Part shown: positions 9,001 to 12,000 of the stretch, in pieces
Numbering within the stretch: position 1 is the stretch's first letter
Layout of the letters: every line of letters starts with the position of its first letter
Virus record (IMG/VR): IMGVR_UViG_648276650_000002
Span: 1-23,198 of that record
Length of the DNA stretch: 23,198 nt
DNA from: a virus
Taxonomy: Duplodnaviria > Heunggongvirae > Uroviricota > Caudoviricetes
Direction: 5' to 3' (one strand)
Program-made: the position numbers

Positions 9001-12000
9001 CCAACGCAACGAGGTATTAAAATGGATCGCCTAATTAGAGAAATGTCGTATCTCTTTACCAAGCAGCGTTTTATGGAGCTTCAGGAAACGGCAAAAGACA
9101 TCGCAATCGGTCATAGTGATTTTCCTGAGTGTTTCGGTCTTATTGCTGACGCCATCGCTGAATTTGTTGAAGACACTCCTGATGATGAGTGGCGAGAGCA
9201 TGAAAAAATCCTTATGCACTACGTTGCTATGCGTGTTCTGACGCTGTGGGGTAACGGCGATAAAGTGACTGATGTCCAGTGGGCGCACCCTGGCTGGTTT
9301 GGCACTGCTGAAAAGGGGGAAACCATTCAATGAAGTTGGAAGCATCACTAAAACACTTTAGCCCTCAGGGTGTGCACATCAGCGACGACGTGAAAGGAAC
9401 CTCTCCGGACCGCCTTACAGGAACAGATGTAATGGCGGCAATTGGCACCACCAGCAGCCGTGCGCGCTTCGGACTGGCGGCGTTCTTCGGTAAAGCGGGA
9501 ATCAGCAAAACGGATGAACAGCTCGCAGTTCAGGCGCTGGCGCGATATGCGATGGATGTCGCACCGAAGAATGTTCGCAAAGCAGCTGGTGGGCAGTTCG
9601 GATGGTGCATGCAGATGTTGGCACAATTTGCCTTTGCTGATTATTCACGTTCGGCGGCTACAAGCGTGACGTGTCACAGCTGCAGTGGTACCGGACGAAC
9701 AACCCGCGAACAGATTACCCGCAAGGTTTCGTACCCATGGGGTAAAGCTCCATACTGGGCCTGCCGCTCTCGTGCTGTTCGACCGTCTGACTGGGAGCAG
9801 TGGATGGAGGTAACAGAGGTTGTACCGGCGGTCTGTGATGCTTGCGAAGGCAAGGGAACGATCAGCGCCCGTTGTCGTTGCGGCGGTAAAGGCGAGGTTC
9901 TAGACCGCAAGGCCACAAGCGAGCGCGGCGCGCCGGTGTTTAAAACCTGCGAGCGCTGCAGCGGAAATGGATTTTCTGCGGTGCCGTCTACCGCAGCCTA
10001 TAAAGTGATACTGAAGCGCGTTCCGGATCTGCACGTCAGAACATGGACTCGCAACTGGAAACCGTTTCTTGAGGCGCTGGTAAGCATTTGTCAGCAGGAG
10101 GAGGGAAACGCCGCAAGAGAATTTCAATCTGCAACCAGTTTAGGCGAAGAAGGTGACGAAATTTAGCATTATTACGACATAAGGCTTGATTTTGTCCGAA
10201 GTTGTCGTGTATGCTTCTAATCATGCGGAGTAACGCCTGAAAGATTTCAACAATAAGCCCCTTGCGGGGCTTTTTTATGGCAGCGAGTTAACGAAAGAAC
10301 TGAAAAGGGCCTTATCTTTATTGCTAATTGATTTTTTCAAATGTAGTTGATGATTTAAAGGTTTAAAGTTTTCCTTTGTGAGATATATACATGCTTTCTC
10401 AAAACGATCCTGAAGGAATTGAAATCTTTCATTCAGCCTGGAAACTTTTAATCCTAATGACATGACCTTCTTCTCAGGAATATCGTCAGGATTGCAATTA
10501 TTGAGTTCTTCCAGCACAAGGCGAATATCTCTTTCGAAGATTGGCGCTATGTTATAATCGTTGAGGAGGCATTCAGGATTACGAACAATGCCAATTACTT
10601 CGTCGATGAATTGTGGTTTTACATTATCCTCAGCATTTTCATCTTCGTTATCGGAAGGTTTTTGAGACATAACATTCGACAACTGCATTTCTTCCTTGGT
10701 TTTCCTTCTGGGAAGTAAAACTTTTCCATCTCCTAAAGCAGCCATACGTTTCAAAGCTTGACTCCCGGCTCGGCCAACTACTTTAGAATCTCTTAAATCT
10801 AAAATTTTATGTGCGACCCATTCTAATGATGGTTCACTGGCTTCGATTTTGGCTTTTGCTTGGTAATGGAGAAAAATATTTTTCTTGGCTTCCTTGAGGG
10901 CTGTTAGATATCTGTGGAAATTTGCCTTTTTCTCGAGGTCAGTGGCTAGGTTTTCAAATGCTATACCGAAGACTTTTGTACCGCAAACGTGACCCAGGTT
11001 CGTCTCCAGACCATCCTCAGTAAGAACAAGAAACCCTTTTTTATGGCCTGTTCGACAGCTCGACTTGCCACACGGGATTTCTTCCGGGAGGTCATCATAA
11101 TAACCAAAAACATCGGATAATTGTTGATCGGTCAGTTCCAGCCTGGAATGATAGCTTTCCCGAGCTTGAATTTCTGTCCAGTCATTAATGCGATCAAAGC
11201 TATTGCCGTTTTTAATAAAAATCATATCTTCCCTTGCTCTGGTTAGATTGAAAGCACTGCCGCTTGATATTTAACCATTTCCCTGATTGTTTTTCATCAT
11301 AAAACCATATTATTGCAAGGGTAGTTTTACCTATGTATCTTCTTGCTCCCGGCCCTTTAGCTCAGTTGGTTAGAGCGTGCGACTCATAATCGCCCGGTCG
11401 CTGGTTCAAGTCCAGCAAGGGCCACCAGACCGCCACTAGCTCATCGGGAAGAGCGGCAACCCAGGTGTTGTGGTACGGGGTTCGAGGCTCCGGTGGCGGA
11501 CCACTGCCGACTTAGCTCAGTAGGTAGAGCAACTGACTTGTAATCAGTAGGTCACCAGTTCGATTCCGGTAGTCGGCACCATATGCGGGCATCGTATAAT
11601 GGCTATTACCTCAGCCTTCCAAGCTGATGATGCGGGTTCGATTCCCGCTGCCCGCTCCAGTTTAAGCTTTTCGGTCTGCGATGATGGGTTCCCCGGAGTG
11701 ACTGGAAAGCGACCTGGTTTTGAATGGGCGCTGCTTTTTGCAAAATTGCTGTGTGAAAATACTGACCTTTGGGTTCAGCGCTCATCCAAAAGCATCACGT
11801 GAATTCACCAACGCTCATGTACTCTCCAGGAAACAATAAGTGATTCTGAAAAGTTCCGGTTAGATATTGCCCCGGTCACCGGATGATTTTATCTTTTGGT
11901 TCGTGGTGAATCCCCCTATGCGGCGGGGCGTCCAGTCAAACTTTTTTGTCCAGGTTTGTTTGCGCGGAACTAGTCGGCTGGGGCTGTTCCACCGGGAGGC

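Follow-up and report, generated by a model that had tools for sequence, protein, structure and literature searches.

The 23,198-nucleotide (nt) stretch analysed here (IMG/VR record IMGVR_UViG_648276650_000002, Caudoviricetes, positions 1 to 23,198; hereafter the window) is part of a temperate lambdoid prophage with phi80-like head genes. In the interval between its Q-type antiterminator gene and its lysis genes lies a compact tRNA cluster, in which three canonical tRNA genes and a fourth, tRNA-shaped unit follow a putative promoter:

11313–11341, plus strand: putative tRNA operon promoter, −35 TTGCAA (11313–11318), 17-nt spacer, −10 TATCTT (11336–11341), from sequence reading and comparison
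11351–11427, plus strand: tRNA-Ile2, anticodon CAU, ileZ/ileX type (ARAGORN; Rfam 69.2 bits)
11430–11503, plus strand: argN-family tRNA-like gene, probably non-decoding (ARAGORN 'tRNA-???', 6-nt anticodon loop; alignment with 933W argN)
11506–11581, plus strand: tRNA-Thr (UGU), equal to host thrU (ARAGORN; Rfam 73.8 bits)
11585–11659, plus strand: tRNA-Gly (UCC), equal to host glyT (ARAGORN; Rfam 64.9 bits)

All four units encode their CCA end, and the spacers between them measure 2, 2 and 3 nt. The initial annotation had placed three tRNA genes for Ile2 (CAU), Thr (UGU) and Gly (UCC) at 11351–11659. These identities were reproduced by a second caller, as ARAGORN returned the same isotypes and anticodons at exactly the same coordinates, in agreement with the scores against the Rfam tRNA model RF00005 (gathering score 29 bits) and with the NCBI annotation of Escherichia coli FAM21845. 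In that genome a 99.9% identical stretch is annotated as tRNA-Ile, tRNA-Thr and tRNA-Gly, with the gap between Ile and Thr, the counterpart of 11430–11503, left undetected. With canonical defined as a cloverleaf with a 7-nt anticodon loop, units 1, 3 and 4 were canonical elongator tRNAs by both RF00005 and ARAGORN, and unit 2 was not.

Compared with the K-12 reference genes (NC_000913.3), the Thr gene was identical to thrU (76/76) and the Gly gene to glyT (75/75) over the whole mature tRNA. The CAU tRNA matched ileX at 70 of 77 positions (91%, 7 differences) and ileZ of the Shiga toxin 2 (Stx2) phage 933W at 72 of 77 (5 differences), and alignment with the elongator gene metT gave far more differences than either. 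Its body is clearly of the Ile2 type and not of the Met type, as judged from these alignments. It shares with 933W ileZ a compensated U6–A67 pair (T6/A67) and the states at positions 27 and 43–45, derived states that ileX lacks. The acceptor pairs C4–G69 and C5–G68, which are reported to be TilS determinants for the conversion of C34 to lysidine, were both found in its sequence, and reading of AUA would need lysidine at C34. The earlier description of the three genes as near-copies of host genes thus fits Thr and Gly, which are exact copies, but the CAU tRNA is nearer to a phage gene than to ileX.

The unit between Ile2 and Thr is the one unexpected part of an otherwise largely ordinary cluster. 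It forms a cloverleaf with a C1–G72 pair, an encoded CCA end, a D loop of 8 nt, a variable loop of 4 nt and the anticodon loop CCAGGU, for which ARAGORN gave a two-base anticodon, equivalent to a 6-nt loop. The Rfam tRNA model had no match to 11430–11503 even at E ≤ 10. A weak Rfam match to YrlA at 11471–11531 (15.9 bits, E = 2.1) was taken as chance. On alignment, the unit has in common with 933W argN, a tRNA-Arg with the loop CUUCGAA, the acceptor stem with C1–G72, the D stem, the T arm and the CCA end. We infer that it is probably an argN-type tRNA that has decayed and lost its decoding function.

Relatives of the unit were collected by scanning IMG/VR and one genome per species with its first 16 nt; matches in the latter scan were mostly due to chance, and 30 real elements were kept. 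The argN scaffold occurs in four forms. The first carries Arg UCU or Arg UCG in a canonical loop of 7 nt. The second, with the 'Lys UUU' loop CCUUUAA, is the common form in E. coli prophages (e.g. strain SLK172), the third has a deleted anticodon arm, and the fourth, here called class A, is the form found in the window. Relative to canonical members, class A has a D loop shorter by one base (8 nt) and a variable loop shorter by one (4 nt); in a parse of 27 family members, its anticodon loop has 5–6 nt and its T stem carries a G–U pair or an A–C mismatch. Pair counts were taken from this structural parse because the MAFFT alignment misregistered the 3' strand of the anticodon stem between classes. 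Class A occurs in Enterobacter, Citrobacter, Buttiauxella, Dryocola, Pluralibacter, Cedecea and other Enterobacterales, and the exact window version was present in 4 of 5,426 complete E. coli genomes.

Selection on the cluster was estimated from pairwise differences per site among 21 distinct full clusters of the order Ile2, class A, Thr and Gly. The upstream and downstream flanks differed at 0.29 and 0.24, and the three spacers at 0.30, 0.34 and 0.29. Values for the tRNAs were 0.042 (Ile2), 0.000 (Thr) and 0.017 (Gly). In the argN-like unit, the 3' body differed at 0.052 and the loop at 0.44; the 3' body alone gives an unbiased figure, since the 5' half was fixed by the search patterns. The tRNA bodies have thus evolved at least 6-fold more slowly than the spacers and flanks and are under purifying selection. 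The body of the argN-like unit is as strongly conserved as that of a functional tRNA and its loop is unconstrained: the acceptor, D, T and anticodon stems and the CCA end are under purifying selection like those of real tRNAs, while the 5–6 nt loop is free to vary.

The variability of this loop (28 variants among 43 distinct class A elements) does not reflect hypermutation or diversifying selection, which were rejected as loops were identical in 23 of 23 locus pairs with less than 4% flank divergence. Beyond 4%, loop divergence tracks flank divergence, and the loop diversity of 0.44 is near the 0.29–0.34 of the spacers; the loop is therefore unconstrained and not accelerated. Pairing of the loop with a nearby ACCTGG, the reverse complement of CCAGGU (11712–11717), was also rejected. 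Such a match was present in 61 of 86 loci against a permuted mean of 53, a slight enrichment attributable to the relatedness of the loci, and the site does not co-vary; across the loci compared, no sequence co-varying with the loop was found. Clustering of open reading frames (ORFs) within 4 kb of 90 class A and 53 Lys-type loci yielded no family both specific to and general among class A.

The −10 hexamer TATCTT is separated from the first tRNA base by a G+C-rich stretch of 9 nt. In a consensus promoter scan the two hexamers scored below threshold. They stay in place in dozens of diverged relatives (TTGCAA/TTGCGT/TTGCAT and TATCAT/TATTAT), in which the spacer and the upstream DNA vary, and this retention amid changing surroundings is good comparative evidence for a promoter. 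We therefore place a putative sigma-70-type promoter directly 5' of the tRNA operon, from which we infer that the operon is expressed.

The cluster is most readily understood as a polycistronic lambdoid tRNA operon of the Q-to-lysis interval, a variant of the 933W ileZ-argN-argO operon, which supplements codons and in which the argN-like relic is kept for its tRNA shape. We hold this reading to be probable, with considerable room for doubt, and codon supplementation is the best-supported account of what the cluster does. The promoter would drive one transcript of four tRNA-shaped units 2–3 nt apart, and RNase P would likely part them by cutting at each 5' end, given such short spacers. The tRNA-Ile2, once modified by lysidine, would read AUA, the tRNA-Thr (UGU) ACA and ACG, and the tRNA-Gly (UCC) GGA and GGG. 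Adding gene copies of low-abundance host tRNAs, the three would presumably ease a translational bottleneck in phage development. With the same aim, helper plasmids of the pRARE type provide ileX/ileY and glyT. Since the operon lies downstream of a putative Q-controlled late promoter, its output should rise further after induction. The argN-like unit would be retained for its tRNA shape, most simply as a processing unit for the maturation of neighbouring tRNA ends; a structural or processing role in the polycistronic precursor is our best guess.

Codon usage is consistent with supplementation. The codon counts cover 13 early ORFs and 11 late ones from the window, together with a sample of 42 K-12 genes, and gave the following frequencies per 1000 codons:

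ATA: 2.4 in the K-12 sample, 8.4 in early genes, 5.3 in late genes
ACA: 5.4 in the K-12 sample, 15.8 in early genes, 10.3 in late genes
GGA: 6.0 in the K-12 sample, 19.2 in early genes, 12.7 in late genes

All three codons are over-used 2–4 fold in the phage genes relative to the K-12 sample, and all differences are significant. The enrichment of the cognate codons in late genes that the initial annotation had called for was found for each of them, with odds ratios versus K-12 of 2.2 for ATA (p = 0.014), 1.9 for ACA (p = 0.003) and 2.1 for GGA (p = 0.0003). By enrichment within codon families, the ranks of ATA, ACA and GGA among 59 codons are 3, 6 and 4 for the early set, and for the late set they are 3, 11 and 4. 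The host tRNA-ThrU has been described as low in abundance (PMC12445682), and a bias towards ACA codons has been reported for phage SfI, which has a Thr(UGU) gene at the same place (PMC3636060).

Several observations weigh against supplementation as the explanation. The enrichment of ATA, ACA and GGA is stronger in early than in late genes, and AGG, AGA and CGA, for which the cluster has no tRNA, show equal or greater enrichment, which points to a generic codon signal. The proposal that the tRNAs support the translation of late genes in particular is thus sustained as far as the codons are enriched there, but not as a late-specific effect. Of the late genes in the window, that for the major capsid protein is the most highly expressed, and it contains no ATA, no GGA and three ACA codons; the tail genes lie outside the window. 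The host baseline is a sample of only 42 K-12 genes, K-12 may not be the true host, and at most 49% of the window is covered by any complete E. coli genome. A processing role for the argN-like unit is a guess. Finally, two nucleases of phage defence act chiefly on tRNA-Thr(UGU), suggesting another selective reason for its presence.

As to origin, the initial annotation had noted that the Thr-Gly pair resembles part of the host operon thrU-tyrU-glyT-thrT and had suggested capture of host tRNA genes. In favour of a recent capture of Thr-Gly from this operon, and of Ile from ileX, are the complete (100%) match of Thr and Gly with thrU and glyT, their arrangement in the order found in the host and the 91% identity of the CAU tRNA to ileX. 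The K-12 order thrU-tyrU-glyT-thrT-tufB was confirmed, and to this extent, in exact sequence and in order, the resemblance stands. It ends there: the phage cluster is without tyrU, thrT and tufB, has a different promoter, and its Thr-Gly spacer is TAT, where the host has spacers of 8 and 116 nt. Comparison of spacers and flanks with the K-12 operon revealed no homology outside the mature Thr and Gly sequences, neither flank matching the host operon, and no tyrU-bearing relative was present among the fetched IMG/VR loci. The identity of Thr and Gly gives no date of entry, because thrU and glyT are invariant across genera, both being 100% identical in Salmonella records. Phage copies in the fetched IMG/VR loci are identical to thrU in 80 of 102 cases and to glyT in 59 of 93, and the Gly variants carry compensatory acceptor-stem changes, so that the phage genes have variants of their own. 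Gene order is shuffled in relatives, and the derived states of the CAU tRNA are common with ileZ and not with ileX. Capture from the host is thus not borne out, and a recent one is possible but unlikely.

A different benefit would follow if the operon replaced tRNAs cut by immune nucleases of competing elements, such as P2 Old, PARIS AriB and similar enzymes. Of these, AriB acts on Lys(UUU) and Thr(UGU), with Asn(GUU) as a secondary target (PMC12409363). Close relatives of the cluster in hundreds of E. coli genomes carry Lys(UUU) on the argN scaffold in slot 2, where it reads U36AAGUU41 and is without the AriB site U36AAUCA41. In addition, other lambdoid phages have Asn(GUU), Thr(UGU) or both in this place, namely SfI, for which no Asn codon bias was found (PMC3636060), and HK639. 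The window itself fits this account poorly. Its slot 2 has a 6-nt loop and no Lys(UUU) version, and its Thr gene, equal to host thrU base for base, keeps both U36AAUCA41, recognized by AriB, and the paired anticodon-stem CNG motifs relevant to P2 Old. Having no changes from the host at nuclease recognition or cleavage sites, this gene is not of the nuclease-resistant kind represented by the Lys and Thr tRNAs of T5, and the retention of the host target sites weakens a role in counter-defence. Plasmid-borne host tRNA-ThrU protects little or not at all against P2 Old (PMC12445682), and no nuclease aimed at Gly(UCC) or Ile2 was found in the tRNA-nuclease literature examined. For the window we regard counter-defence as unlikely. 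It rates higher for the Lys-type relatives, since their slot-2 sequence is without the AriB site.

The Lys(UUU) version on the argN scaffold was observed in E. coli SLK172 (locus L002, 3088–3164) and in about 50 IMG/VR loci (e.g. L004 and L010), with C33 and U73. Judging by its sequence, it is a candidate nuclease-resistant tRNA-Lys of temperate phages, standing beside a host-identical Thr(UGU).

Rather than a dead gene, the argN-like unit could also be a conserved non-decoding tRNA mimic. It might then divert, or compete for, tRNA-binding immune nucleases or toxins that recognize the tRNA body, or it might be an obligatory 'punctuation' unit for RNase P. If so, and with relatives carrying a Lys(UUU) on the argN scaffold that has no AriB site, the Q-proximal operon would be a counter-defence locus of temperate phages. 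We consider this composite proposal quite improbable.

That the cluster is functionless mosaic baggage hitch-hiking in the variable Q-to-lysis interval is very unlikely: the interval is a cargo hot spot in which differing minus-strand ORFs adjoin the cluster in relatives, and one of the four units is clearly degenerate, but the slow evolution of the tRNA bodies relative to spacers and flanks, the retained promoter hexamers, the compensatory nature of the stem changes and the recurrence of the cluster in several Enterobacterales genera all speak against it.

The surroundings of the operon in the window are as follows:

7116–9020, plus strand: replication module with a 634-amino-acid (aa) Toprim and DnaB-like primase-helicase
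9330–10166, plus strand: Q-type late antiterminator gene (Pfam PF03589, E = 6e-54; PHROG 127 'anti-termination protein Q-like', E = 1e-100)
10186–10215, plus strand: putative late promoter pR', TTGATT, 18 nt, TATGCT, from sequence reading
10255–10280, plus strand: intrinsic terminator after Q, stem 10255–10272 followed by a T run (to 10280), from a terminator scan
10275–11225, minus strand: ORF of 316 aa, low in G+C, PHROG 7003 of unknown function
11878–12070, plus strand: STnc100-family prophage small RNA (sRNA), full-length match to Rfam RF02076 (71.7 bits, gathering score 47)
12040–12070, plus strand: intrinsic terminator ending the STnc100 sRNA, from a terminator scan
12468–12800, plus strand: holin gene (Pfam)
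12712–13233, plus strand: lysozyme gene (Pfam)
13230–13703, plus strand: Rz gene (Pfam)
14225–14839, minus strand: ORF of 204 aa, low in G+C, PHROG 5483, between the lysis and terminase genes
16012–23198, plus strand: genes for terminase, portal, protease and capsid, with roughly 95% identity to phi80 from the phi80 cos end, with the major capsid gene at 22166–23191

The promoter-like sequence and the strong hairpin terminator directly after the Q stop codon stand where pR' and tR' are expected, and the terminator also ends the convergent minus-strand ORF. Different minus-strand ORFs occupy the slot between Q and the tRNAs in relatives, which marks it as a cargo hot spot. The two minus-strand ORFs of the window jointly have 39.7% G+C. 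The ORF at 10275–11225 has the invariant residues C52, C57, H61, H79 and C81. It had no Pfam or PADLOC match, all 15 of its homologues are hypothetical proteins, and a Foldseek search of its AlphaFold model (mean predicted local distance difference test score 67.7) against the Protein Data Bank returned nothing below E = 0.6; these searches gave no sign of a tRNA-related enzyme or toxin. The ORF at 14225–14839 had weak, marginal matches to CARF/HEPN defence models (E = 0.004–0.008), and a HEPN RNase beside a tRNA operon would be of interest, if true. The non-coding block at 11660–11880 gave a fold z-score of −1.46, which is not significant. A 2026 preprint links STnc100 with the PasD sRNAs.

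The closest known counterpart of the cluster is the tRNA operon of phage 933W, where the annotated order is Q, pR', terminators, pT, ileZ-argN-argO, terminator and late genes. In both phages the operon follows Q, pR' (putative in the window) and a terminator and precedes the late or lysis genes. Both have a putative promoter directly 5' of the first gene, annotated in 933W as 'pT; putative tRNA promoter' and here read from the sequence. In both, the first gene is an ileZ-type tRNA-Ile2 and the second is built on the argN scaffold CCGCCA(C/T)TAGCTCATC...GGCGGNCCA with its C1–G72 pair. Unlike argN of 933W (Arg UCG), the window unit is one base shorter in each of the D, anticodon and variable loops. 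The window also lacks argO (Arg UCU), in whose place stand exact copies of thrU and glyT, it has no stx genes, and a minus-strand cargo ORF lies between its pR' and the tRNAs. With its argN homologue degenerate and argO replaced by Thr and Gly, the cluster is a variant of the ileZ-argN-argO operon and not the same operon. The initial annotation had set it apart from the Ile/Arg/Arg set of Stx phages; it is instead a relative of that set, unit 1 being nearer to ileZ and 11430–11503 being an argN homologue. A whole-word literature search on ileZ, argN and argO found no paper.

Transfer RNA genes downstream of Q have been published for SfI, Sf6, ST64T and phage 21 (PMC3636060). The position is the same as in the window, but the gene sets differ, SfI for instance having Asn GUU and Thr UGU, and the argN-like unit is absent from the published descriptions of the tRNA regions of SfI, phage 21, Sf6, ST64T and HK639. 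In the Q-to-holin interval of HK639 (NC_016158, 44363–44658) we found an unannotated tRNA-Asn(GUU), behind which lie a 3' fragment remaining from the same Gly(UCC) gene and the non-coding block of window 11605–11800, at 96% identity. The remnant and the common downstream block indicate that a larger cluster was lost there by deletion.

Relatives in IMG/VR show that these operons are modular, with architectures such as Thr-Arg(CCG)-Gly, Arg(UCU)-Gly-Thr and Gln(UUG)-Thr-CAU-Gly (among them loci L023, L088 and L094), and 17 loci (e.g. L005/L006) have an argN-type gene without the whole anticodon arm followed by Arg(UCU). After ileZ the slot is filled by Arg UCG, Arg UCU, Lys UUU or a relic with a degenerate loop, and next comes either argO or Thr/Gly. 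Of the tRNAs found in these operons, at least Thr UGU and Lys UUU are known targets of Old and PARIS, and the family therefore offers a natural series for separating codon supplementation from counter-defence. The conserved, loop-unconstrained argN-like unit poses a small testable puzzle, namely what selects a tRNA body that does not decode.

Phage T4 has tRNA genes for Ile(CAU), Thr(UGU), Gly(UCC) and Arg(UCU), and the window cluster resembles the T4 cluster in the tight packing of phage tRNA genes for A-ending codons. Nuclease-resistant tRNAs of the T5 type comprise Lys UUU, Thr UGU and Asn GUU, so that Thr(UGU) is known from counter-defence as well. The tRNAs of T4 and T5 differ from host sequences, giving nuclease resistance, whereas Thr and Gly of the window are host-identical. 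Q-proximal lambdoid tRNA operons have been known since the 933W genome; the present one differs from it in carrying Ile2, Thr UGU and Gly UCC within the same framework.

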